Shown: piece by piece, positions 7,300 to 58,702 of the stretch
Layout: the number at the start of each line of letters is the position of its first letter
How positions within the stretch are numbered: the first letter of the stretch is position 1
NCBI GenBank assembly: GCA_013289145.1
Contig: JABDAM010000001.1
Location: 4,466 to 68,465 of the forward strand
Source: Alphaproteobacteria bacterium
GTDB taxonomy: Bacteria > Pseudomonadota > Alphaproteobacteria > UBA11073
Direction: 5' to 3'
DNA: 64,000 nucleotides
The notes under the pieces: model-generated
The model's database searches: none
The model's input: the letters and a program-made list of their open reading frames with translations, nothing else
What the model was told of the DNA's origin: nothing
Made by a program: the position numbers and the translations under genes

Positions 7300-7410
7300 G
7301 CGATGCGGCAATGCCGCCGTCACACTCCCTCCGCTGGTACTAACCAGATCAGGTCTTGGGGTTAGGCGCCATGGCACCCTCTCAGCAATTGCACCCCCGG
7401 TGATGCCCTT
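7300..7410 (-). promoter_or_regulatory. TPP (THI-box) riboswitch in the thiC leader
   Basis: The minus-strand sequence reads ggggtgcaattgctgagagggtgcc...acctgatctggttagtaccagcggagggagtg. This matches the GGGGUGC / CUGAGA / ACCUGAUCUGG...CCAGCG.AGGGA THI-element core. A hairpin (gcggcattgccgc) lies downstream before the thiC RBS. Confidence 0.85.
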
Positions 7411-20966: not shown

Positions 20967-22070
20967 ATGTCTGAAGATCAACGCCCCTCCTTGTGGGAGC
21001 TTTTTAATGTATCCAACACAATCAGTTTACGGGTTCCCGAAGAGGAGCTTATTAACGCAGTCCGTTCAGGACATTATAATGTTAATGCGTTTCTTGATAA
21101 ATTGAATGGTCCGGTGCTTTCCTTTGCGGCACGCATTCCTGGTTTGATTAGTTTGAATGCTGTAGAAGAGCTCCTCCGTGCCGGCGCCGAAACCTGCCCA
21201 GAAGCAAGTCCCTATAAAGGTGGGTGGTCAGCTCTGTTTGAGGCAGCAAATTATGGCAACCTCGCGTACTTAGAGCTTTTCCTAAAGTATCATGCCGACG
21301 CCAAGGAGGTGGGACACAACAACTATACAGCGCTCCACGTAGTAGCGGAAAGAACCAAAGGGAATCCGGAAGACAGAGCAAAGATGGTTGATCTGCTGGC
21401 GGCGGCAGGCGCCGATATCAACGCAAAAACGGCAGACAACGAAACCCCGGTATCACTAGCCGTTAAAGCTGGGAATGTTCCAGTCGTGCTGCGTTTATTT
21501 GCTCACGGCGCGAGCCCCTATCAAACTATGGCCGTAGCGGAAGAGACAGCGAATGGGCAAAAGGAATACAAGCAAAAAGGATTATTGGATCTGGCAACAA
21601 CGGAAGGCATGAAAGACGCCATCCGGCAGGTTCAAGCGGAGCGGAATAAAGAATTCCTCACTCCTTCAAATACACAAAAGGACGTGACGGACCTGAAACA
21701 AATGGTATCGGATCTGACGGATGAGATTGAGGGTCTGAAGGAGGAAGTTGCAAATTTGAAGGATCAAGTTGCAGATTTGAACGGAGCCAATGGGCGTCTG
21801 CAAGGCTGGCGGATAGATCTGGAAAATACGTTAATGGAGCAAGATATTAAAGTGCCGCCCAGACCCTTTGTCCTGGGTGAATCGGCGTTGAATGGCGCGT
21901 CTTATTTGGCAGGAGATGATAATGAGCCGCCAACAGAACCAAGATCCCGTCATGCGACAAATTTTGTAAGAACCGGCCTAGCCGCAGGTGTTGCTCCCGC
22001 AGAGCCAGGGGAGAAGATCGGCGCTAAACCATGGCGCGGCGGTTTCCGCCCGGGCGGCGCGGCGCTGTAA
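20967..22070 (+). CDS. Ankyrin-repeat protein with a central coiled coil, lower G+C. Candidate secreted effector.
   Basis: ANK repeats (NYTALHVVAE...DLLAAAGADINAKT...TPVSLAVKAGNVPVVLRLFAHGASP). A heptad-like LKQMVSDLTDEIEGLKEEVANLKDQVADL stretch. A/T-richer codons than its neighbours. Confidence 0.75.
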   Translation: MSEDQRPSLWELFNVSNTISLRVPEEELINAVRSGHYNVNAFLDKLNGPVLSFAARIPGLISLNAVEELLRAGAETCPEASPYKGGWSALFEAANYGNLAYLELFLKYHADAKEVGHNNYTALHVVAERTKGNPEDRAKMVDLLAAAGADINAKTADNETPVSLAVKAGNVPVVLRLFAHGASPYQTMAVAEETANGQKEYKQKGLLDLATTEGMKDAIRQVQAERNKEFLTPSNTQKDVTDLKQMVSDLTDEIEGLKEEVANLKDQVADLNGANGRLQGWRIDLENTLMEQDIKVPPRPFVLGESALNGASYLAGDDNEPPTEPRSRHATNFVRTGLAAGVAPAEPGEKIGAKPWRGGFRPGGAAL

Positions 22071-23113: not shown

Positions 23114-25270
23114 TTAAAAAGCTTTTTTATCCGCCGGTGTCAAGCTTTTCGTGTTATCCGGCGCTACATTTCCGGGATCCAGCGGGCTTGCGCCTGTGGT
23201 CGGATCATAGGGGCAATAGGCGTTGAAAAGCATGGATACAACCGTCCGCAAAGCGTCGCAACCTTGGCCGTTATGGCGGGCAATCAGTTCGTTCGGCCCC
23301 AACCAGGTCACGGCATAATTAAACCGGGCAAATTTTTCATTCGCCAGGCGCTGGTAATCAACCCCTGCCCGCTCCGGCGTGGTTATCAAGGTCATGTGAA
23401 TTTTGCGGCCATCCCAACTATCGGGATCATTGATATTAAAGACGTCAATTTTATCCGCGCGCCAGCCCAGGATACTGAGCGATACGGCGTTCAACGCGCC
23501 CAAAACATCCGCTTTATACCGGACATAGGTAAAGACCGGCTTTTCGTGATGGTTTTGCAAGCGTTCTAAATAAATGAGGGTATGAATCTTGTCGGCGATA
23601 AAATGTGAAACGTCATAACCGGCATTGGCGGTGTGCGGCACTTCGCGATAAACCAGTTTCAGGAAGTTGAATTTTTTCTCCTGCGGCAGCGCTTCCCATT
23701 GATGCACCAGCATTTGGTTGTCATCCAGATTGGGTTGATTATACGAGATCCATAATTCCTGATAGGGTTTGTGCGGAAACAAATAGTTATGCACCGCAGG
23801 CACGCACAGAGCAGCGGCGAAGGATAAAACAATCACCGTAATGCCGGCCATCGCGGTTTTGGCGATCGGCGCCTGTTCTGGCCAGCGCCAGTGTGCGGAT
23901 GAGAAAAATTTGCGCGGATGATCCAGCAGCATCGCGCCCTCATTCATAATAAATGCGGTAAATGACGGAATGGTAAAGAGCAAAGCCAACAAGGCAACAT
24001 AACCATAAGGCGGCGCCATGTAATAGACCAATCCTATGGCAACCGCATAACCGATATAAACCATCGCCATCATGCCCGCGATAAAAAGATGCTCCCCTCG
24101 CCGCCGCAATGCAAAAAGCAAAGCGGTCAGGCCCATAAGCGTGCACAAAATACTACTGAGATGACGGAAATCAAAATCATAATTGAATAATATATTGCTG
24201 GTGATGCGCGCCGCGAGGGAACGCGTCACAAATCCCGGGTCCTGGCGCCAGACCTGCATGAATTCTTTTTGAGCTGCGATGTCGTGCTTGGTGTAATCGC
24301 AATAATTATATCGAATGCCGTAATCTTTTTCAGTTTTGGTGAAAACGTATAAATCTTCATCCTCCAGGCCGTATTGGTTGGGATAATGGCCCAGCCCCTG
24401 AAACGCCGTGTGCCAGGACATGCGCGTGGAAAGCGCAAAGTGCCCCATGACGCTGGAGGCGCGCATAACCTGCGGCATGATGGTGAGGGCAAAGATCAAA
24501 AAGAAAATACCGCAATAACGCCGCAATGACGGCACCGTTAAAAACACGGCGATAAAGGTAAGCGCCACGATCAACGCCGTCGACCGCACCCACAGGGTGA
24601 AACCGATCGCGGCGGCGGCCAGGATAATCAGCGGAATGGCGTAAAGGCGTTTGTCGCCCTCCACCAGCGCCCGCCGCGCCCAGATCAAAGATATCACCGC
24701 CAATGAAATCAGCCAGCCTTCCCAGAAATATTGAAAGGGAAAGACCGCCTGATAGGCAAACACCGGATGGACGCCGTAAAATAATCCCGCCATCGTCGCG
24801 GGAATAATCCCCATGCGCAGAAACGTAAAAAATAATAAAAACAACATCACGCCGTCGCAAACCAATTGCAGGCATTCGGCGCGCAAATAACTATCGGGAA
24901 TATCGGTCATCAACTTGCGCGCAATCGCCACGATAATGCCGAAACCGGGATCGAGCGCGAGATAAGTGCATTTGCCGTCTTTGGGAGAGTCGTTCAAAAT
25001 ATAATCACTGATCTGAAGGCGGTGCATGTTGACCATCATGCGCGAGATATCAACCACGCCCAATTTCTCGCCTTTTAACCAGTTTTCCGACATATCGTGG
25101 AAAGTGTAATAATTCGGATGGATCGTTTGATTAGGCGGGATCTGATATAAAAACAAAAAATCAAACCGCGTCGTGAACCAAGACCCAAAACAAAGCAGCA
25201 GCGCGCCCAAAACCAGCCATTGTTTGCCTGTCAGATAAAAATTAAGGCTGGCTTTGGATGGGTTGTCCAT
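23114..25270 (-). CDS. Polytopic membrane protein, 718 aa, about 12 TM plus a C-terminal about 250-aa soluble domain. Paralog of the upstream gene. Function unknown (GT-C-like architecture?).
   Basis: Multiple hydrophobic helices. Conserved loop motifs LDPGFG and [28 protein letters not shown] are shared with its neighbour. Confidence 0.6.
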
Positions 25271-27293
25271 TTAACTCTCCGCATTGATGATTGAAATAAC
25301 GCGCCAATTGCAGCCGCGTTTCGGAACAGCCGTCATGCACATGCGCGCCGATATATTCGCCATTGCCCAGGGCGCGCAGATCCCAGTTCCAATGGTCGAA
25401 TTTTTTTATCATCAATTCATCGACGCGTTGGGCTGATAATAATGTATTAGGCACCAGTTTAATGCGCAGTTGCTTGCCTTCCCATGTCGCCGGGTCGGCA
25501 ACGTCAAAAGAACTGATTTCGGCATAACCGACGCCCGCAATGGATTGCGACGCACGCGCCAGCGGTTCGTAGGTGTCGCTGTCCACCTTCCGGTTGAACC
25601 AGAATTCGCCGCCCGAGCCGTCCAGATTGGTAAAGCTGGCTTCGCGTAAGTTTTGAATGACATATTGGTAAACCGGATCGTCCGGCCCGCTAATATGATT
25701 TTCCGTATGGGATTTCATAAAAGCGATCAGACGCGCATGCACCGCGGGTGGCAGAGCATCAATGCGCTCATGCAGCTTCATAAAGGCTTTTCCCATAATC
25801 ACCGGCGGCGTATCCCAGCGCACGGTGATAACCGGATTAGGCGTGAAATATTGCTGCACCGGCGGGAAAAATAAGACCACCGCGACAATGGCGGAAAACA
25901 ACAGGCCGATATTGACCGGCTGGATTTTATCCTTGTCCCATTTGGGCCAATCGCGCCGGATCGCGCGGCGCACCAATTCACACAGCCCCGCCACCGCGAC
26001 GGCAGAACCGAAAATATTCATCATCTGCGTGGGATAGGAATATTCGCGGTGAATATAATAGACGAATGAATAGGCCGTATTAATCAAAACATACATCATC
26101 GCGGCCAGCAGCGCCAAAACCTGCATATCGCCACCGAGCCACAGGCCGAACATCAAACCCGCCCAGGCGGCGAATAAAATATAATGATCCCAGAAGACGA
26201 AATTCTGATCGCTGAAGTTGCCAAAGATGCTGGCGAACATGCGCTGGGCGATGGAATGGACGATGTAACCCGGATTATCATGCCATAGCGCCTGGTATTT
26301 TTGCTTCATCACCTGGTCTTCCTGGCTGTAATCACAGAAATTATAATTTATATGATCTTCCTGGTGCGAACGTTCGAACAGATATAAATCGTCATCCTCC
26401 AGCGCATATTGGTTGGGATAATGCCCCAGCGCCTGAAAGGCCGTATGCCACGACATGCGCGTGGAATAAGCCAGATGGCCGCTGAGCTGCGTCGCGCGCA
26501 TCACCATACCGCCCGCAAAGAGCACGTAAATCACGGCGGGGTAAATCAGCCAGGGGCGAAGCGTTTTGGAAAAGATCGCCGAGGCGCCGAGCATAATGGG
26601 CGCGAAAATAAACCAGCTGCTGCGGATCCAAACGCCCGCGCCCAAAATCAGGCCGAGCAGAATCGCCAGCGTGATAAGCATCGCCTTTGGCCGGTCGTCT
26701 TTTTGCAGACGGTAAATCCAGAGCAGCAGCAAAACCGACAGCGTCGCCACCAGCCCGTCCCAGAAATGATACCAGGCCGCGTCGGCGCTAAGCGCGAAAA
26801 CGCTGTGCGAGGCATAAAGCAGCGCGCCGAAAACCGCCGGGATCCAGCCCCAGCGGTAAAAGGTCAGATAAAAAAAGATCACCAGCAACGCATCCAAAAA
26901 TAATTGGATGGAAATAATCCGCATTTCCGTATCAGGAATAAAAAACATTATTTTATTCGCGGCCGCGTAAATGCCGCCCAAACCGGGATCCAATGTTTTA
27001 AACGCGCAATATTTATCACCGGGCTGGCGGTCGGTTTTATAAACTTCCTTGGAAGAAAAATCCAAATTGCGCATCAGGCGCATTTCATTAACCTCGCCGA
27101 ATTTATGGCCTTCATCCAGGCTGACGGCGATGTCCTTAAACACCTTTGTCATCGCGTGATGCATCGGCTCAAAATTAAAGATCAGATAAACGCGCGTGCC
27201 GGCCCAACCCGCCAGCACAATCACGAGGCCCAGAGCAAAGAAAAATTTCCGCCAAGCTTGGGCATTGGGGTTTGTCGCGTCGAATTGCATCAT
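25242..27293 (-). CDS. Polytopic membrane protein, 683 aa, tandem paralog of 23114..25270
   Basis: Same architecture. Motifs [34 protein letters not shown] and CDYSQED are shared with the downstream paralog. Confidence 0.6.
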   Translation of the reverse strand: MMQFDATNPNAQAWRKFFFALGLVIVLAGWAGTRVYLIFNFEPMHHAMTKVFKDIAVSLDEGHKFGEVNEMRLMRNLDFSSKEVYKTDRQPGDKYCAFKTLDPGLGGIYAAANKIMFFIPDTEMRIISIQLFLDALLVIFFYLTFYRWGWIPAVFGALLYASHSVFALSADAAWYHFWDGLVATLSVLLLLWIYRLQKDDRPKAMLITLAILLGLILGAGVWIRSSWFIFAPIMLGASAIFSKTLRPWLIYPAVIYVLFAGGMVMRATQLSGHLAYSTRMSWHTAFQALGHYPNQYALEDDDLYLFERSHQEDHINYNFCDYSQEDQVMKQKYQALWHDNPGYIVHSIAQRMFASIFGNFSDQNFVFWDHYILFAAWAGLMFGLWLGGDMQVLALLAAMMYVLINTAYSFVYYIHREYSYPTQMMNIFGSAVAVAGLCELVRRAIRRDWPKWDKDKIQPVNIGLLFSAIVAVVLFFPPVQQYFTPNPVITVRWDTPPVIMGKAFMKLHERIDALPPAVHARLIAFMKSHTENHISGPDDPVYQYVIQNLREASFTNLDGSGGEFWFNRKVDSDTYEPLARASQSIAGVGYAEISSFDVADPATWEGKQLRIKLVPNTLLSAQRVDELMIKKFDHWNWDLRALGNGEYIGAHVHDGCSETRLQLARYFNHQCGELNGQPIQSQP

Positions 27294-28125: not shown

Positions 28126-29343
28126 GTGAATTCAAAGGAATATGTTATGAGCAGACAGCATAAAAATACCCAACAGCAGCATCCTCAGGTTAAGAAAACC
28201 CCGCCTCCGGCTAAACCACAACCGGTTTCGGTCATCAGCAATGCAGAAGAAATTAAAGACATTCTTAAAGAAAACGCCATTAGCTTGCAAAAAAAGCTGT
28301 TGCCATCTCCGGGAAAAACACTTGTGAACGGTCTGATTTTCAGCCTTATTTGCAATTTAACGGCATGGATTTTTACAAACACGCTTGACGCCAATCACAT
28401 CCACCCCGTCTTAACCGCGCCAAAAGGGGTAAAAGCGTCCGAACGGCAAGGGCATTATATTTTCAGCGGCTCCGGCCTGACGGCTTATGGGGAGATGAGC
28501 AACAGCCTTTCAGACGCGATGGCAAATAAATTGGGATCGAGTTTCGAAGGCTATGGTTATTACAAAGCCGGCGGCTCCTATATTAACGCCCTGCAAGTTC
28601 AAAGCCCGGAGAACGAATTATCCGTGGGCTTTATGCAATCGGATACCCTACCTTTTATGCGCAGACACGGGGAAAGCAAAACAGCGGATGGCGTAAAAAT
28701 CCTGATGCAAACCCAAGAATACGAAGCAGTTTTTATGCTTACCAACACAGACCGCTTTAAATCTTTGACGGATTTGCAGAATGCCGCGCTGCTTGCTGAA
28801 AAAAAGCCGGGCCTCACGCCTGTGATTGCGACGGCAAGCCATTATACCAGCGGCTCTTATTACACTGCTAAAAATATCGCTGAATGCCTGGGCGGAAAAA
28901 TAAAGGTGACGGATTACGCCACCCCCAGCATCGCCATGGATACCGTCATGGATGGCAATGCCGATATCTGCCTGTTTGTGGAATATCCCGGACCGATCAA
29001 AGATGAAGCGATGGGTTCGCTGAAAAGCTTATTTGATAAAAAGCAAAGCCAGAAAGGCAGCCACCTTTCGCTGCTTAATGTCGGTCTTTCCGATTATAAC
29101 AGAATAAAAGGGCTGAGTAATTATTATAGCGACGCCGATGTTAATATTCCAAATTTCGGCCGGAGGAATGTTCTGGCAACCCGCATTGTGATTGTCGGGC
29201 CGGATCCGGATCACATCCAAGATCCGGCGACGCGGAACAGCGCGGGCTATTTTCAGCAGTTTTTCAAATCCCAAATCACGCCGAATGACGTGAAGCTGAG
29301 TTCCAAAGAAAACATCAAAATCGTTCACGATATTCCACAGTGA
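28126..29343 (+). CDS. Hypothetical protein with one N-proximal TM helix, low G+C (ORFan)
   Basis: Long ORF, A/T-rich codons, hydrophobic segment LVNGLIFSLICNLTAWIF. No motif recognised. Confidence 0.5.
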   Translation: MNSKEYVMSRQHKNTQQQHPQVKKTPPPAKPQPVSVISNAEEIKDILKENAISLQKKLLPSPGKTLVNGLIFSLICNLTAWIFTNTLDANHIHPVLTAPKGVKASERQGHYIFSGSGLTAYGEMSNSLSDAMANKLGSSFEGYGYYKAGGSYINALQVQSPENELSVGFMQSDTLPFMRRHGESKTADGVKILMQTQEYEAVFMLTNTDRFKSLTDLQNAALLAEKKPGLTPVIATASHYTSGSYYTAKNIAECLGGKIKVTDYATPSIAMDTVMDGNADICLFVEYPGPIKDEAMGSLKSLFDKKQSQKGSHLSLLNVGLSDYNRIKGLSNYYSDADVNIPNFGRRNVLATRIVIVGPDPDHIQDPATRNSAGYFQQFFKSQITPNDVKLSSKENIKIVHDIPQ

Positions 29344-30066: not shown

Positions 30067-31599
30067 TTATTGCGCTAAGGCCATTCCGTTCAGGTAACTA
30101 TCAATCTGCTGTTTTTGCGCTTTGGCTGGCTGGAAAACACGGTCATTATAATCCTTATCGACAGCCTTCCAATTTTTGACCGCGTCATCCAGGCGCTTGG
30201 AATCGACGGGAGAAAGAGCGTTGCCCGCCATACGGCGTAAATCCGGAATTGCCCGCCAGATTTCATTATGCGCATCCTCAAGCCGGCCCAGAGAAGTTTC
30301 GGAAGCCTGATCTAAAAGGTTAGAATTACGGCGCCAGAGGTGGGGCGTTTCTTCTTTTAAACAACTTGCAATGCTATCATATTTCAAATTATTCGGATGA
30401 TCTTCTCCCTGTGCTTTATCATAGCTCAATGTTAATTTAAAATTCCCGACATGGTCCAATCGATCCTTCGATGCTGGGATGGGCATCGCAACGAAACCTG
30501 AATAAAAACTGCCTTGCCAATTTCTTAATGTACCCACTGCTTCTCCCGCCTCCGCGAAAGTTATGGTCATGCGCTGCTTGCCGCCATATTGATCAAGCAG
30601 TTTTTGATGATTTTGTAATACAGACAAACGTTGCGCCTCTAGGTTTCGCATCGACTTCGTGCTGTCTTGCAGATAAGTGGTGAGATCTTTAAGGGCAGAA
30701 ATTGAATTCTGCTGATCCGCGCTTTTCACATAATTCAATGCGGCCATGCCAATAGCCAGAGCCATACCGGTTTTCAAAGGCAGGGTGTGCAGGCGGTAGT
30801 TTTTGCGAATCCATGTTGGATCTTCCTTATTTGTCGACCATGGCGCGACAATTGCAAGACCACGAAAAGCCGCCAGGGGGAAAGCAAAACCAACCAACAT
30901 CCGCCCCCAGAAATTGACATGCGCTGGATGAGCATTACAATCTGCGGAGGCATATATAAGAGCGGATATCACAGCCCCAGTATAATGCCCAAAGCGCCTC
31001 ATCCCCATATCACATAGAGATCCTGTAGAGTCTTCTATGGCTGCAGCAAAATACGGATAATTATCCTTACTCAGCTTCCAATTTTCCCACTTCACGCTGG
31101 CAGCGATTTTTTGCCCGGTGCGGCGCAGGCCTTGGCCGGCGGCTTGCGCTTTTGTCACAAGATAGTTTTTTGCCGCGATTTTGTGGCGTTGCAAAGCTGC
31201 ACGGCGCGGCGGCAGGGTCAGTGTTTTTTCCAAATCACGTGGCAAAATGCCGCCCTTTAACTCTACCGCGACATAGGTTAGCAGGCGGTCAAGATCATAT
31301 TGCAAATCTCTTGCGGCTTTGCCGTCATAACTATGCGGACGGCGGCCATTTTCAGCACCCAGCCAACCCTCCATGGTTTTGCGAATATCCGCCCCGGTAA
31401 CTGTGTGTTGTGCTGTCTGATCTAAATCCGCGTTTTCCTTGCCAAGACCGTATGCGCTGGAAATCGCGCTGACCAGGGCCTTTGGATCTTTCATGCCTTC
31501 AAACCGTTCGGCATCAAGCTTGCCCAGCAAATCTTCCAGCTGGAACGCAGTTTGGCTCGCCTGTTCAGCTTCGGCGCCATTATATAATTCGTGCTGCAA
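30067..31599 (-). CDS. Hypothetical 510-aa protein with a central bilobed hydrophobic segment, lower G+C. Candidate effector / membrane-inserting protein.
   Basis: Hydrophobic region AVISALIYASAD...MLVGFAFPLAAFRGLAIVAPW inside an otherwise hydrophilic protein. No motif recognised. Confidence 0.5.
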   Translation of the reverse strand: MQHELYNGAEAEQASQTAFQLEDLLGKLDAERFEGMKDPKALVSAISSAYGLGKENADLDQTAQHTVTGADIRKTMEGWLGAENGRRPHSYDGKAARDLQYDLDRLLTYVAVELKGGILPRDLEKTLTLPPRRAALQRHKIAAKNYLVTKAQAAGQGLRRTGQKIAASVKWENWKLSKDNYPYFAAAIEDSTGSLCDMGMRRFGHYTGAVISALIYASADCNAHPAHVNFWGRMLVGFAFPLAAFRGLAIVAPWSTNKEDPTWIRKNYRLHTLPLKTGMALAIGMAALNYVKSADQQNSISALKDLTTYLQDSTKSMRNLEAQRLSVLQNHQKLLDQYGGKQRMTITFAEAGEAVGTLRNWQGSFYSGFVAMPIPASKDRLDHVGNFKLTLSYDKAQGEDHPNNLKYDSIASCLKEETPHLWRRNSNLLDQASETSLGRLEDAHNEIWRAIPDLRRMAGNALSPVDSKRLDDAVKNWKAVDKDYNDRVFQPAKAQKQQIDSYLNGMALAQ

Positions 31600-31669: not shown

Positions 31670-32314
31670 TTAAAATACTTTCATCCATGCGGTGCGCAGC
31701 GCCGCATCCAAATCCGCCATCGTAGCCCCCACGCCCAGCGCGGCGAGTGACGTAACGCCATGCTCGCTGATGCCGCAGGGCACGATACCGGCGTAATGCG
31801 ATAGGTCCGGCGCGACGTTGATGGAAACACCGTGGAAAGTGATCCAGTGCCGCAATCGCACGCCGATGGCGGCGATTTTATCTTCGCGGCCACTGGGCGT
31901 TGCAACCCATAACCCCACTCGCCCCTCGCGGCGTTCGGCATTCACGCCGAATTCACGCAACGACAAAATCACCCACTCTTCCAAATTCCAGACATATTTG
32001 CGCACGTCTTGCCCGCCGCGTTTTTTCAAATCCAGCATCACATAAGCAATCCGCTGTCCCGGGCCGTGATAGGTATATTGGCCGCCCCGCCCCGTTTCAA
32101 AAACTGGAAATCGCGCATCCAGCAAATCCGCCACGCGCGCCGAAGTCCCCGCGGTATAGAGCGGCGGATGTTCAAGCAGCCAAACGCATTCACCGGATGT
32201 GCCGGACCATTCATCCGCCGCACCCGCGCGGATGTCGGCGACGCGCTGTTCCATGAACGCCAGCGCATCGGGGTATTCAACCAAACCGTCGGATGTTTTC
32301 CATTCTATCTGCAT
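31670..32314 (-). CDS. lipB: Octanoyltransferase LipB
   Basis: [11 protein letters not shown] and C-terminal GVxxxKI / catalytic-Cys region typical of LipB. Confidence 0.85.
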
Positions 32315-32853
32315 TACTCATACTTCAATTCCGGCAGCCGACGGCCCATTTCTTTTTTCCCGCCTTCTATGTTTTGGGCCAATTGTATTTTTTGCGCGTC
32401 TGTCAGTTCATTGCTGACAAGCAAATGGGGTATCTTAAAAAATAATTTCTTGGCAATTTGCAATTGCAGCACATGGGTTCCCAGATATTCATTACGCTGG
32501 TCGAGCTTTGTTTCATAATGCTCGGCGGAATCAAATTCGGCGATCTCCGACAAATTTTGCGACCACAGACCGGATTCCGCGCCTTTTTCGTAATAAAACA
32601 CTTGCTCTGGGTGCGCCTTGAAAACGCTAAGAAACGCAGTCCCTGAATGCCTTGCGCTAAAATATGTCTCCACCAAATCCCAGCAGGCAAACGCATGCAG
32701 CAGCGGGCCGTCATTTTCCTCACCATATAATGTTCTTTGCCAGTCGGGATGCTTTGTGATCCGAAACAAAAAAGCGGCGGCGGGCGAATTACGGGACCAT
32801 TCCATCGGCACCGCGCTATACGACAAACTATCGAAAATATCTTTCATCTTCAT
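32314..32853 (-). CDS. Hypothetical protein (179 aa), lower G+C
   Basis: ORF only. No motif recognised. Confidence 0.45.
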
Positions 32854-33350
32854 GCCTCATTATTTCGTTCTTCAAATACACCAGTTTGGATATTTTTTCT
32901 GACTTGCGCCGCATCGAAGACACGTCCGTTCATCGCGACATAAACCCCCGGCGGCAAAGTTTGCGCGGCCACGATGGCGCCGCCCAAATTAAAACTAGCG
33001 TCGGAACGCAGCAATGCAAACGGCCGCATCGCGCCTGTCAGAACAACGGTTTTACCCGGCACCGCGCCGTTCAGGTATTCAGCCGTCTGCGCCATGGTGC
33101 TGGTGCCGTGGGTGAGGACGATTGCTTCTTCCGTACGCGCCAGAATGGCATGTTTCATCGCTTCGCGGTCCTGATCCGTAATATCCAAACTGTCTTTTTG
33201 CATCAGGATTTGGTACGGCACATCCTTGACCCGGCATTCGCGCAAAATATCCGAGATGTGCGACTGGCCGGTAAAGACCAGCTTTTCCGTAATCGGATCG
33301 TGGTCTTTGTCAATCGTGCCGCCGGTGGCGAGGATGCAGATATCGTTCAT
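32850..33350 (-). CDS. Short asparaginase/glutaminase-domain protein (166 aa)
   Basis: ILATGGTI threonine-containing signature of the asparaginase N-terminal domain. Much shorter than AnsA/AnsB. Confidence 0.6.
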   Translation of the reverse strand: MNDICILATGGTIDKDHDPITEKLVFTGQSHISDILRECRVKDVPYQILMQKDSLDITDQDREAMKHAILARTEEAIVLTHGTSTMAQTAEYLNGAVPGKTVVLTGAMRPFALLRSDASFNLGGAIVAAQTLPPGVYVAMNGRVFDAAQVRKNIQTGVFEERNNEA

Positions 33351-33392: not shown

Positions 33393-33423
33393 TCTTCACC
33401 GCCCATTCAGGGCGGTGAAGACT
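33393..33423. terminator. Strong 12-bp perfect hairpin (tcttcaccgccc-attca-gggcggtgaaga) downstream of the coiled-coil gene, without a U tract
   Basis: The inverted repeat is seen directly. The absent T-run makes an intrinsic-terminator assignment uncertain. It could be a REP-like element. Confidence 0.35.
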
Positions 33424-33469: not shown

Positions 33470-35296
33470 TTAGAGTTCCAAACGGCGACCAGGCTCACAA
33501 CGGCGAAGGAATTTTTGTTCGGGTGTGAGGTATTTGCGGTGATGGAAGTCGCCTCCGCCGGAGTCGCCGCCGCTGGAGTCGAAGCCTCCGCCACCGCCAC
33601 CGTTATCATTGCTACCGCCGCCATCGTTATCATTGCCGCCGCCGCTCCAGGTGCTATTGTTGTCATTGTTGTTGTCATTGTTGTTATTGTCATTGTCATT
33701 GTCATTGTTGCTGCGGCTCCAGTCATTACCACCGCCGTTGCCAGAAGACCAGTTATTGCCTCCGCCAGTAGGCGAGATGTCCATGTCTGAAACAGATGGG
33801 ATTTCAAAACTAAATGCGTTGCCGCCGCCGGTATTGCCCGTATCGCCAAAGCCGTTTTCACCCATCGCAAAACCAGCGTTAGATGCTTCCAAACCACTCG
33901 ACAGGACTTCATCCGTCGCATCCGCATTATGAACGCCAGACATGTCGAAACCCGACATATCAACATCAGATGCAATATCCTGAATATGATCTGGGATAAC
34001 AAAGGCATCAGGCGGCAGATCCGCTGCATCCATTTGTGCCTGTTGAACATTCAGCATCGATGCATAATACAATGCATCGTTATTTTGCTGCGCCAAATTC
34101 TGCCACATGCGGGAGTTCAACTTATCCTTGAAACTGTCATCCACAACAACGACCGTATAATCAGGCTGATAGGTGGAAACAGAAGTACGGAAACTGCCCG
34201 AGCGAATAGTCGATTGGCGCGCTGCCACTGTCTGGCACGCTACACGTTGTTCAATTACATCCAAATCCAAATTAGGAATTTGACGCGACCCGTGCCCATT
34301 GCGGATTTCTGTATTGAAGCTAGGAAGCGGCTTTTCAAGCTCTTGAATGTTCCCGTCAATGCCATCGATCTGCGCTTGCAGCGCCTTATCTGATTTTTGC
34401 AATCCTTCGACCTGGATCACGGCCAGGGCGATCGGGCCGGCAGCTTCAAGACCAAACACTTCGACCAAGGCATCCACAAATTCAGGGTTTTTAAGAGCGA
34501 CATCTACCACCGTAGCGGCAATCGTTTCCTGCATTTCTTCCGTGGTTGTAAGCTTCTCGTCCAATTTTTTCATCCGCTTTTGCAGATCGTTCATTGTCTG
34601 AATGGTGTGGGTGAAAGATTGGATTTGTTCCTGTTGTTCCTGATAATCTTTGCGGCATTCTTCTGCCTTTGCTTCAAGCGTGGTTTTTACTTCAAGATCT
34701 GTATAGAAATCGCCATGCACGGGTTCATAGTTTGCCACAACCTTAACCGCATCATGGAAATCATCCTGAAAGAAAAATGCCTTAAAGTTGTCCCAGCGAC
34801 TGAGTTTGGCATTATAATAACTACCAAAATTGCTTCCATCGATCTTTTTGTAATGGGTTTCATTATAACGCTTAATACCGGCAAGCGCATTATCGATTTC
34901 CAGGATGCCCTTTTGGTCAGACTGAAACATCTCATTGATTTCAATCTTTTTTTTCTCTGCCGCTTCCTTGGAAGCGATCTCCGTAGCCGGCGAATGCCAT
35001 TGTTCTTTTAATGGTTTAATGCTCTCTTCAACAGTGGCGTTTTGCTGATGAAAACCAGCCAATATTCTGTCAAAACTACGGCCCGCATTCGAGCGGATGG
35101 ATGCATCATCGAATTTAGCAATCGCTTCAGGGGAAAGATCCGAAAGAAGCTCAATAGCTTTTTGAGCCATTCTGTCTTTCGTGGTTTCAATCTCTGTTTG
35201 GGTAGCATCGGATTCCGCGACCAATCCGTTCCGGACATTTTTTAGATCTTTAGTTAATTCTTTAAATTTAGCGCTTGCTTGGTTGATAGTTGACAT
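33470..35296 (-). CDS. Coiled-coil protein (608 aa) with a C-terminal Gly/Asn/Asp-rich low-complexity tail. Candidate effector.
   Basis: N-terminal about 450 aa are rich in heptad-like K/E/L/Q segments. The tail is GGGN..NDNDNDNNNNDNNNDNN..GGGGGG. Confidence 0.6.
   Translation of the reverse strand: MSTINQASAKFKELTKDLKNVRNGLVAESDATQTEIETTKDRMAQKAIELLSDLSPEAIAKFDDASIRSNAGRSFDRILAGFHQQNATVEESIKPLKEQWHSPATEIASKEAAEKKKIEINEMFQSDQKGILEIDNALAGIKRYNETHYKKIDGSNFGSYYNAKLSRWDNFKAFFFQDDFHDAVKVVANYEPVHGDFYTDLEVKTTLEAKAEECRKDYQEQQEQIQSFTHTIQTMNDLQKRMKKLDEKLTTTEEMQETIAATVVDVALKNPEFVDALVEVFGLEAAGPIALAVIQVEGLQKSDKALQAQIDGIDGNIQELEKPLPSFNTEIRNGHGSRQIPNLDLDVIEQRVACQTVAARQSTIRSGSFRTSVSTYQPDYTVVVVDDSFKDKLNSRMWQNLAQQNNDALYYASMLNVQQAQMDAADLPPDAFVIPDHIQDIASDVDMSGFDMSGVHNADATDEVLSSGLEASNAGFAMGENGFGDTGNTGGGNAFSFEIPSVSDMDISPTGGGNNWSSGNGGGNDWSRSNNDNDNDNNNNDNNNDNNSTWSGGGNDNDGGGSNDNGGGGGGFDSSGGDSGGGDFHHRKYLTPEQKFLRRCEPGRRLEL
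33656..33712. repeat. Hexanucleotide (ATTGTC/ATTGTT)n microsatellite encoding (Asn-Asp)n, plus adjacent GGC/GCC repeats (33540..33650)
   Basis: attgttgtcattgttgttgtcattgttgttattgtcattgtcattgtcattgtt is seen directly. Also a 16-nt direct repeat gccgccgctggagtcg x2. Confidence 0.8.
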
Positions 35297-35452
35297 TGCT
35301 TTTCTCCTCGATGGTTAAATTATTAGTGTCTGGATAGCCAATTTTTCCACGAAAAGTCAAGAAATTTTTACTTGCATGGGCTGTCGACCACTACCCCGGC
35401 CTCAAAAAGATCTACCATTCCGCAGTGAAACTTGTTAAACACCTGTTTGGAT

Positions 35453-42131: not shown

Positions 42132-43238
42132 ATGTCTCTAAAATTAACATTTGAACAAGACCGAACCACCCAGATTGAACTCATTGGCGAAGAGAAAGCC
42201 AGGGTTATCAGCGCCTATGCAGAAACAGCGGGCAGGCAGAAGCTGGCTACAGCATTATTCGCTCAGCTATCCCCCAGCCGTCTCGATTTCTTTCTCCACT
42301 TGGCAGGAGAGAGCATATTTCACGCACCTCCACGGAATGAGTACTGTTTTTTGCGAGACTTAACGGCCAGTATACCACTAGTGGATGTTAAACGCCTGGA
42401 TATGGTAATGAGTTCAATGCAATATCATAACAACATATTAACGGATTTTTCTGAAACTCTCTGTGATTTCCTGCGTCAAAATCCAAAAAAGGATCCCGAG
42501 GCGGCGGCTGGCTTTCTTGGGGCAATAGACGGTGATCACGGCCGCGAGGTATTAGGCGGAATCATTGAAGCTCTACTTGATGTGTCTGATTCAGGATATG
42601 AATTAATTCATGATCTGGCAATGAATTTGTACGCCTCGAAGGGCGCCAGATTAGATGAGTTTTTGGAATCTTCCGGCATTATATCACCTAGTGACCGGGA
42701 ATTATTCGAAGAACTTAAGCTGGTTGCCGCTAAAAAAATCTATTCTGAAATGCCTCCTGCAGATCAGAACATATTTATCTTATTAACCAAAAAAATCACC
42801 GCTGATGCAATAAGTGCGGAAGATTATAAATTGCTTGAATTTTTTGCCGGAGATGAAATAGCCGCCTTTATTCCTGAAAGTGAAAGCCTTCCCGGCAGTA
42901 TTTTAAGTCTTCTGAAATTATATTCTGCATGTGAGCGTACTGATCCGCGTGGCGGGCTTACAGGAATATCCCCTGAAAATTATCACTTATTATCCGGACA
43001 CCTTCTTAAAATGTCAGATGAAGAACGTGAAACGATGTGCCGCGTCATCACTGGGGGAAGCCCAATATCCGCCACGAACGGCAAAATGATCAAGTTTGTT
43101 AGTGCCGATCAAGATTCATGGATTTTCTATATATCTGAATTCGCGAGGTTCAGTAACGCAAAATTGGTGATAACAAATAATGGCAAGCCCCCGTTACCGC
43201 CGACCGGTGGAAACCGCCCAGAGCCACTGCAAGGCTAA
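42132..43238 (+). CDS. Hypothetical protein (368 aa), lower G+C (ORFan)
   Basis: ORF only. Preceded by a near-consensus TTGACA-N19-TATAGT element. Confidence 0.5.
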   Translation: MSLKLTFEQDRTTQIELIGEEKARVISAYAETAGRQKLATALFAQLSPSRLDFFLHLAGESIFHAPPRNEYCFLRDLTASIPLVDVKRLDMVMSSMQYHNNILTDFSETLCDFLRQNPKKDPEAAAGFLGAIDGDHGREVLGGIIEALLDVSDSGYELIHDLAMNLYASKGARLDEFLESSGIISPSDRELFEELKLVAAKKIYSEMPPADQNIFILLTKKITADAISAEDYKLLEFFAGDEIAAFIPESESLPGSILSLLKLYSACERTDPRGGLTGISPENYHLLSGHLLKMSDEERETMCRVITGGSPISATNGKMIKFVSADQDSWIFYISEFARFSNAKLVITNNGKPPLPPTGGNRPEPLQG

Positions 43239-57814: not shown

Positions 57815-58702
57815 TTATGCGGTTAGCTCCACTTTATATTTCGGCTGTTTTCCAGCGGGCACACGCATATTCCATTTGAGAATAGAGTTCAAAGAACTCT
57901 CTGAATCGAACTTTTTATCCCACCCGGCGTCGCTTATAAATTTGCGCGCCGCACTGCCATCCGTAATCTCCAATCTGCGGGTTTTTTTACTATATGGGCT
58001 GAAAGCCCCTCCGTCACTTACGCGAAACGCCTCGACGGGCTCAATCCCATTGGCAGGATTCCAATATTGAATAAAAGTATCCGCAACGCCTACGATGCCT
58101 GGAATATTGTCAAAATAAGGCTGGCGTTTATCCGTGACATGATTTTCAGGCAACAAAAAAAGCACGCGTTCGTTTTCCGGCATATCGGTCTTGCGATTTT
58201 CAGCCTTATTGCGCTCCAGGCAAATATCAACGGGTGCTGAAAAACCGGCGATAGTTACCGTATAACCTTTGCTTTTGGCTTCTTCAAATAATTTTAATGC
58301 AAACGGCGAGGCTGCCGTGCCGACAGCGATTAAATCATAACCTTCGTCCAAAGCGCGTTTATTGGCGTTGATGGAAATCCAATTGGACGCATTGCGCCAT
58401 TTTTCATAGGCATATTCAAAACCGCGCTCCGCCAAATCACGCTGATATCCGGGAATGGCGCACAAACAATTATCATTCACATCCACTAAAACCGCGTTGG
58501 GATTTTCACGTGCCAGCTGACGCGCATAACGCGATTTACCGGCACCAGGCACACCGCCAGTGCCGATAAATTTTTTATGCACTGATGGGCGCTTTCCCTT
58601 AAATAATTTTTCTAAAACGTCCCGAACTTCGGAAATCTCTGCGCGTGTTAAACCGTCAAAATTATCTTTTTGACTAACGAAAAGATTGTTTGGATTAGTC
58701 AT
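57815..58702 (-). CDS. P-loop kinase-like protein, zeta-toxin / AAA-type (Walker A GTGGVPGAGKS)
   Basis: Walker A motif followed by a hydrophobic strand and Asp (VLVDVND), reminiscent of zeta-toxin/UNAG-kinase-like phosphotransferases. About 110-aa C-terminal extension. Confidence 0.55.
   Translation of the reverse strand: MTNPNNLFVSQKDNFDGLTRAEISEVRDVLEKLFKGKRPSVHKKFIGTGGVPGAGKSRYARQLARENPNAVLVDVNDNCLCAIPGYQRDLAERGFEYAYEKWRNASNWISINANKRALDEGYDLIAVGTAASPFALKLFEEAKSKGYTVTIAGFSAPVDICLERNKAENRKTDMPENERVLFLLPENHVTDKRQPYFDNIPGIVGVADTFIQYWNPANGIEPVEAFRVSDGGAFSPYSKKTRRLEITDGSAARKFISDAGWDKKFDSESSLNSILKWNMRVPAGKQPKYKVELTA

Follow-up and report, generated by a model that had tools for sequence, protein, structure and literature searches.

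The gene considered here lies on the minus strand of a 64,000-nucleotide stretch of DNA from an alphaproteobacterium of the lineage UBA11073 (contig JABDAM010000001.1, positions 4,466 to 68,465), referred to below as the window, of which it occupies positions 33470..35296. This open reading frame (ORF) is a genuine, stand-alone chromosomal gene and a divergent member of a small, unnamed family of alphaproteobacterial proteins. We hold it moderately probable that the product is a cytoplasmic scaffold, in which a conserved helical domain is followed by a lineage-specific disordered tail that has grown by repeat slippage. The general architecture, a folded helical domain joined to a low-complexity disordered tail, is already known, and it is the family itself that is unnamed.

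The family was delineated by an exhaustive phmmer search with residues 1-479 of the target against 1.84 billion representative proteins, which returned 26 relatives of 365-587 aa. These share 20-30% identity with the target, are collinear with it from residue 1, and have E values of 1e-43 to 1e-3. Together with the target they make up a family of 27 proteins, numbered P0001-P0027. The hallmark of the family is an N-terminal domain of around 400-430 aa that begins M-[PS]-[TS]-[IL]-[RK], to which the target conforms, and the alignments contain the nearly invariant residues I141, N145, Y190, D200, F273 and P323. The annotated start of the gene is right, since the N-terminus of the target, MSTINQ, aligns with the conserved MPTIR start of the family. 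A family hidden Markov model (HMM) gives the target ORF 439 bits and covers residues 7-428.

The closest named relative is MDB5491046.1 (P0002), a hypothetical protein from the Micavibrio sp. metagenome-assembled genome (MAG) RYN_474, which is matched over residues 1-452 with 28% identity and E = 1e-43. Like the target, it is encoded by a stand-alone gene and carries a disordered, repeat-encoded acidic tail, but the units of its tail are of the DVP/VPDI type, in contrast to the GGGN(D/N)W and (N/D)n units of the target. The target also differs from it in having the longest tail in the family, a unique basic 23-aa end, diverged family motifs and other genomic neighbors. The remaining relatives, P0003-P0027, are unnamed, and the predicted order of helices is common to the target and to P0003, the relative that was modeled. 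The first-pass annotation of this DNA had left room for a housekeeping ortholog; homologs do exist, but they are uncharacterized and are not housekeeping proteins.

Beyond these relatives the protein stands apart. None of the 27 family proteins matches a Pfam family, the target has no match in NCBIfam, and PADLOC and PHROGs returned only noise for the target and four relatives. The target gives sub-threshold matches to the coiled-coil families MAD (15.8 bits against a cut-off of 30) and ASRP (18.3 against 300), and nothing among PDB sequences fell below E = 0.004 with either the protein or its profile. A word-index homology search, probably swamped by low-complexity and coiled-coil words, returned the query itself with the full protein and the query plus P0016 only with a 15-sequence profile. 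When a 185,579-species genome set was scanned with the family pattern, to which the target itself conforms, the Micavibrio MAG locus alone was retrieved. Two scans of JGI metagenome contigs gave no related locus and no close relative, viral contigs contained no relative, and an exact-protein contig look-up had no record for the target. No second family member is detected within the window by the family HMM, and a neighboring 510-aa ORFan was rejected as a paralog, as it shows no similarity to the target. At 90% identity the ten relatives that were looked up are singletons, with no name attached to them other than "hypothetical protein". The target, which is also on record from an SRA-run assembly (Logan), and eight housekeeping proteins of its genome, which include LipB, malic enzyme, H+-PPase, enolase, QRPTase and GyrA, are likewise singletons at this level among 15 billion proteins, and the source genome belongs to a lineage without close sequenced relatives in the databases searched.

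The conserved domain is predicted by AlphaFold2 to be entirely helical. The long helices of the target span residues 4-50, 75-99, 104-137, 197-247, 283-321 and 345-375, the helical region extends to around residue 440, and the helices are split into 15 or more segments. The predicted local distance difference test score (pLDDT) exceeds 90 to around residue 380, lies at 62-85 for residues 380-420, and falls below 50 for residues 426-608; the predicted template modeling score (pTM) is 0.58 for the target and 0.58-0.62 over both models. In P0003 the order of helices is as in the target, and its VPDIS-repeat tail is also predicted to be disordered, with pLDDT below 50. A pentapeptide-repeat beta-helix was considered for such VPDIS tails and rejected, given this prediction of disorder and the lack of a Pfam match. 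In both models residue 3 forms a one-residue bridge with the conserved I.IDLD segment, and this predicted contact may explain the conservation of the N-terminus. When the two models were compared with PDB and BFVD, Foldseek returned generic long-helix matches only (TM-score <=0.31, root-mean-square deviation >20 Å, E > 1e-3), among them the dynein stalk, the arms of MukB, SMC and Rad50, chemoreceptors, and XaxB/AhlB.

The first-pass annotation had described the N-terminal ~450 aa as a heptad-rich coiled coil. The helical content and the heptads stand, in that the target has a crude a/d heptad score of 0.538 against 0.435 +/- 0.022 in shuffled sequences. On account of the lengths of the helices, their confident prediction as separate segments, the pLDDT above 90 and the pTM, the N-terminal domain would appear to fold as an intramolecular multi-helix bundle, and less probably as a plain coiled-coil rod formed by two chains.

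In contrast to the domain, the tails of the family are unrelated to one another in sequence, and the alignment shows no conservation within them. They extend for 70-187 aa beyond the conserved domain in every relative except one 365-aa tail-less protein, and that of the target, at 187 aa, is the longest. Around 18 of the tails are acidic (net charge -2 to -24) and contain [VI]P[DN][IV]S-like pentapeptides, SSYDSG units of a Ser/Tyr/Asp type or Gly runs, often with an aromatic or acidic last residue, whereas around eight are basic and rich in Arg and Gly (net +3 to +12). Tail-less members are represented by P0011 and by a 369-aa tandem paralog that lies directly downstream of the tailed P0003 in two of the fetched loci, L003 (2156-3265) and L004 (2954-4063); this paralog matches the HMM with E = 3e-59 and is similar to P0011. 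In some lineages, then, a tailed gene is paired with a tail-less one, and the existence of tail-less members means that the fold does not need the tail.

The tail of the target was earlier said to consist of N/D/G repeats encoded by short in-frame DNA repeats, and this description is borne out by translation, composition, Tandem Repeats Finder (TRF) and an exact-repeat scan, just as its proposed disorder agrees with the low pLDDT. The last 187 aa have a net charge of -24. Residues 488-585 are rich in Gly, Asn, Asp and Ser, with 50-residue blocks that peak at 34% Asn and 34% Gly, and contain Phe or Trp residues spaced every 10-24 aa. The target keeps a single pentapeptide-like motif, IPSVS at residue 499, and its other units, GGGN(N/D)W and (N/D)n, are its own; Asn makes up only 0-11% of the relatives' tails. 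The acidic-tailed relatives mostly finish in a Gly run or in a short Asp/Ser-aromatic motif.

At the level of DNA, TRF detects overlapping arrays with periods of 6, 12, 15, 21 and 24 nt at 33547-33710. The exact-repeat scan finds a perfect ATTGTC array of 3.83 units at 33686-33708, GCC arrays of 3.7 units at 33635-33645 and 3.3 units at 33821-33830, and a 17-nt exact direct repeat, TTGTTGTCATTGTTGTT, at 33657 and 33669, which had been reported, essentially correctly, as 16 nt long; another 17-nt exact direct repeat is found at 33686/33692. Six of the eight TRF rows of the whole window map to this tail, and nowhere else in the 64 kb are low complexity and tandem repetition as strong; among real coding segments it also has the lowest entropy. 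The tail is therefore not a chance feature. Synonymous codon differences can be read among the repeat units (GGC/GGT/GGA, AAT/AAC and GAC/GAT). Imperfect tandem repeats are likewise found in the tail DNA of seven loci (the window, L001, L002, L003, L005, L008 and L011), with 64-93% matches; the units in the relatives are 6, 15, 21 and 30 nt and the loci span 41-67% GC.

The conserved unit of the family is thus an N-terminal all-alpha domain of ~420 aa built from long helices, and it is followed by a predicted intrinsically disordered tail particular to each lineage. The tail probably arose by slippage or unequal exchange on in-frame codon repeats, with AAT/AAC/GAC and GGN units of 3, 6, 12, 15 and 24 nt, and point mutations would later have interrupted the repeats. 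Its length and composition would then drift on an evolutionary timescale, with no high-frequency switching. Slippage had been put forward in the earlier annotation as a source of variation in tail length, and as the origin of the tail it is likely, since the tails of the relatives are also imperfect repeats that differ between lineages; as an ongoing switch it is not borne out.

One alternative is a contingency locus, where frequent slippage in the hexanucleotide and GGC tracts would lengthen or shorten the tail without breaking the reading frame, and thereby generate variants of a surface or effector protein. It would fit with repeat units that are multiples of 3 nt, such that slippage would stay in frame, and with the great differences in tail between family members. 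We nevertheless consider it very unlikely. The longest perfect arrays amount to 3.83 units for the hexanucleotide and 3.7 for the trinucleotide, and the remaining repeats are interrupted, which suggests that the tail changes slowly. Perfect tracts of fewer than four units are far below the tract lengths of known hypermutable contingency loci. The protein has no signal peptide or transmembrane segment, and P0004 and P0008 are identical in 4 and 6 contigs, respectively, of different samples, although the exact-sequence look-up that gave this result is biased towards identity. The longest mononucleotide run of the gene, an A8 homopolymer at 34947-34954 (T8 on the plus strand) that encodes Lys-Lys-Lys, is the only spot where slippage would shift the frame.

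It may instead be asked whether the tail has a function at all. If nothing but the helical domain mattered, a runaway low-complexity expansion, with 23 aa added by read-through, could persist unopposed, and this would account for a tail sequence that is not conserved at all, for the tail-less paralogs, and for a basic 23-aa end that has no counterpart in the acidic-tailed relatives. Against this, all full-length members but one keep a disordered tail of 70-187 aa, at loci that range from 41 to 67% GC, and [VI]P[DN][IV]S-like motifs, of which the target has one, persist in most acidic tails, along with 3-10% aromatic residues. Such retention suggests selection for a tail of a certain physical type, and we regard a functionless tail as unlikely.

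The question of where the protein acts is informed chiefly by export signals. The N-terminus of the target is not hydrophobic and has no signal peptide, no transmembrane segment is present, and the family shares no transmembrane-grade or hydrophobic-head segment. The only KD19 (Kyte-Doolittle) peak above 1.6 in the target falls within a pair of helices that is predicted with confidence, and it includes Glu residues. From this lack of export signals the protein would be cytoplasmic. No eukaryotic domain is found in the target or, by Pfam, in any of the 27 family proteins, the only taxonomically placeable relative is a bacterial MAG, and all the fetched loci carry bacterial housekeeping genes. 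The earlier suggestion of a eukaryote-like or surface/effector protein is thus not upheld, there being no signal peptide, transmembrane segment or eukaryotic domain, a bacterial relative and housekeeping neighbors.

More specific is the proposal of a secreted predation or symbiosis factor, either a type I-exported acidic Gly/Asp-rich protein or a pore-forming toxin, elongated and alpha-helical like ClyA, XaxAB and AhlB, that acts on the membranes of prey or host. The closest named relative comes from a Micavibrio MAG, and this genus relies on Gly/Asp-repeat proteins exported by a type I secretion system (T1SS) (PMC3189940). The target, with a pI of 4.6, resembles RTX and other type I-secreted Gly-Asp repeat proteins, such as the hemolysin-related proteins of Micavibrio (PMC3189940), in its acidic, Gly/Asp/Asn-rich C-terminal region and in its lack of an N-terminal signal peptide. 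Yet it has no GGxGxDxUx periodicity: this RTX nonapeptide occurs in none of the 27 members, the target contains one isolated GGxGxD hexamer, and HemolysinCabind of Pfam has no match in it even at E<=1. No genes for an ABC exporter, membrane fusion protein (MFP) or TolC lie near the target gene in the window or in the related loci, although the genes of a T1SS need not be linked, and around eight members have basic RG-rich tails that are unlike T1SS substrates. As for the toxins, XaxB, PaxB and AhlB recur among the weak Foldseek matches and share with the predicted structure of the target an elongated long-helix bundle of ~350-420 aa. The two tandem paralogs in one lineage recall bipartite toxins, and an ankyrin-repeat protein is also encoded in the window. 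However, the structural matches have the low TM-scores and large deviations given above, with E >= 0.1 for these toxins, the family lacks a hydrophobic head, and no partner gene is present in the window. Overall, we consider secretion of this kind quite unlikely.

We return, then, to the cytoplasmic scaffold with a slippage-derived tail. The conserved function would reside in its helical domain, which would most likely form oligomers and work as a scaffold or adaptor. The N/D/G tail, which is acidic and has Trp and Phe residues at intervals, may serve as a flexible multivalent appendage, acting as a spacer, an entropic bristle or a weak sticker-and-spacer module. Among bacterial hub and scaffold proteins, PopZ of Caulobacter and HubP of Vibrio combine a helical oligomerization domain with an acidic disordered region; PopZ has ~180 aa with its disordered region in the middle, and HubP is anchored in the membrane. 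The likeness to the target is one of architecture alone, namely a helical part with a variable acidic disordered region and no enzymatic motif, in a protein that for the target is predicted to be cytoplasmic. No sequence or fold relationship with PopZ or HubP was detected, and size and domain order differ. Asn/Gln-rich prion-like domains also occur in bacteria, as in Rho of Clostridium botulinum. The target resembles these in having a disordered segment that locally reaches 34% Asn, contains Gly and Ser and has aromatics at intervals, but the strong acidity of this segment (13-16% Asp, net -24) disfavors an amyloid or prion, and the relatives show no Asn enrichment.

A number of points weigh against this scaffold. 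Neither family and PDB-sequence matches nor fold matches (Pfam, NCBIfam, PADLOC, PHROGs, PDB and Foldseek) offer a functional lead, and the proposed function is putative for every member. The topology of the bundle is a provisional reading of secondary structure, pLDDT and pTM. The cytoplasmic location rests on missing export signals, and T1SS or non-classical routes remain compatible with the sequence. The target is itself diverged at motifs that are conserved in its relatives, such as W..TD..YRSGY and the hydrophobic N.MLL..LL helix, and its role may no longer be that of the ancestral protein, whether altered or lost. Finally, the GC content of the N-terminal part of the coding sequence is 0.446, compared with 0.524 for the window.

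In its more ambitious form, the family would represent an undescribed class of alphaproteobacterial scaffold, in which a helical bundle bears fast-evolving tails of two opposite types, acidic and motif-rich or basic and RGG-like, whose role is to recruit partners or to promote assemblies, such as condensates, particular to each lineage, the N/D/G/W tail of the target being a sticker-and-spacer or cation-binding module. This is a tentative idea that we would not expect to hold in full. The outcome is modest, in that it defines a previously unnamed family with 27 representatives among 1.84 billion and a confident but unmatched all-helical fold. It does provide a clear example of disordered tails that emerge and give way to new ones through slippage at codon repeats, on a folded domain that is itself retained, and, if the tails are functional, acidic and RGG classes on one scaffold would amount to a natural experiment on bacterial disordered regions. 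The target is not like a phase-variable antigen or a eukaryote-mimicking effector, and by itself it opens no major question.

The coordinates of the gene, its parts and its flanking signals are collected in Table 1. The U-tract of the hairpin that follows the gene is weak on the minus strand.

Table 1. The target gene, the regions of its product and adjacent signals, in window coordinates
Feature	Position	Strand	Basis and remarks
Complete coding sequence, 608 aa, with TAA stop (33470-33472)	33470..35296	-	ATG start; ORF list and sequence; collinear homologs from residue 1, best E = 1e-43
Conserved all-alpha domain, aa 1-425	34022..35296	-	AlphaFold2 with 27-sequence alignment; family HMM covers aa 7-428
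Predicted disordered tail, aa 426-608	33473..34021	-	pLDDT <50; composition and charge
Low-complexity core, aa 488-585, with GGGN(N/D)W-type units, N/D run and Gly runs	33542..33835	-	Translation, composition, TRF, direct-repeat families
N/D run NNDNDNDNNNNDNNNDNN, aa 530-547, 18 residues	33656..33709	-	Includes (ATTGTC)x3.83 array and 17-nt direct repeat 33657/33669
Basic 23-aa C-terminal peptide HHRKYLTPEQKFLRRCEPGRRLEL, pI 10.3	33473..33541	-	No counterpart in acidic-tailed relatives
Shine-Dalgarno-like GAGGAG	35304..35309	-	7 nt 5' of ATG; read from sequence
12-bp GC-rich palindromic hairpin	33393..33421	-	49 nt past stop; sets gene apart from downstream gene; sequence

On one flank of the gene lie a tRNA-Leu(GAG) and a malic-enzyme gene, and on the other a 166-aa asparaginase-N-domain protein, an ORFan and lipB. 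The neighbors differ in every related locus and are mostly housekeeping genes, encoding an ABC ATPase, M48 peptidase and hydrolases; NAD kinase, PurS and a glycosylase; RNase D and AspRS; UvrA; or response regulators. There is no conserved operon, and no secretion genes were found near the target gene or in the related loci. A link with RimK was rejected, as its gene is nearby in L003 and L011 but absent from the window, and linkage to a prophage was likewise rejected, as the phage genes of L005 are ~5 kb away, beyond housekeeping genes.

Several other features of the window deserve mention. At 32314-33350 (minus strand), the 166-aa protein consists of the asparaginase N-terminal domain only (PF00710, E = 2e-31) and overlaps by 4 nt a 179-aa ORFan without a family match; the pair may be a split, truncated or re-purposed asparaginase. 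The ankyrin-repeat protein is encoded at 20967-22070 (plus strand), in a gene that also contains a 21-nt tandem repeat of 2.4 copies at 21736-21787, and ankyrin repeats, which are unusual in free-living bacteria, give a hint of a host- or prey-associated lifestyle. A zeta-toxin/AAA_33 kinase-like protein is found at 57815-58702 (minus strand) and a TPP riboswitch, at 62 bits and above its gathering score, at 7308-7408 (minus strand). Large ORFs of 718, 683, 405, 510 and 368 aa without a Pfam match, at 23114-27293 (minus), 28126-29343 (plus), 30067-31599 (minus) and 42132-43238 (plus), are interspersed with the core genes sodB, lipB, gyrA and the H+-PPase gene; those of 405 and 510 aa have no NCBIfam match either. 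Outside the window, in the locus of the RG-tailed relative P0010 (L010, 11575-15654), the family gene is followed by three same-strand genes of 458, 512 and 374 aa, none with a recorded Pfam family, and these may be an operon peculiar to the members with basic tails.

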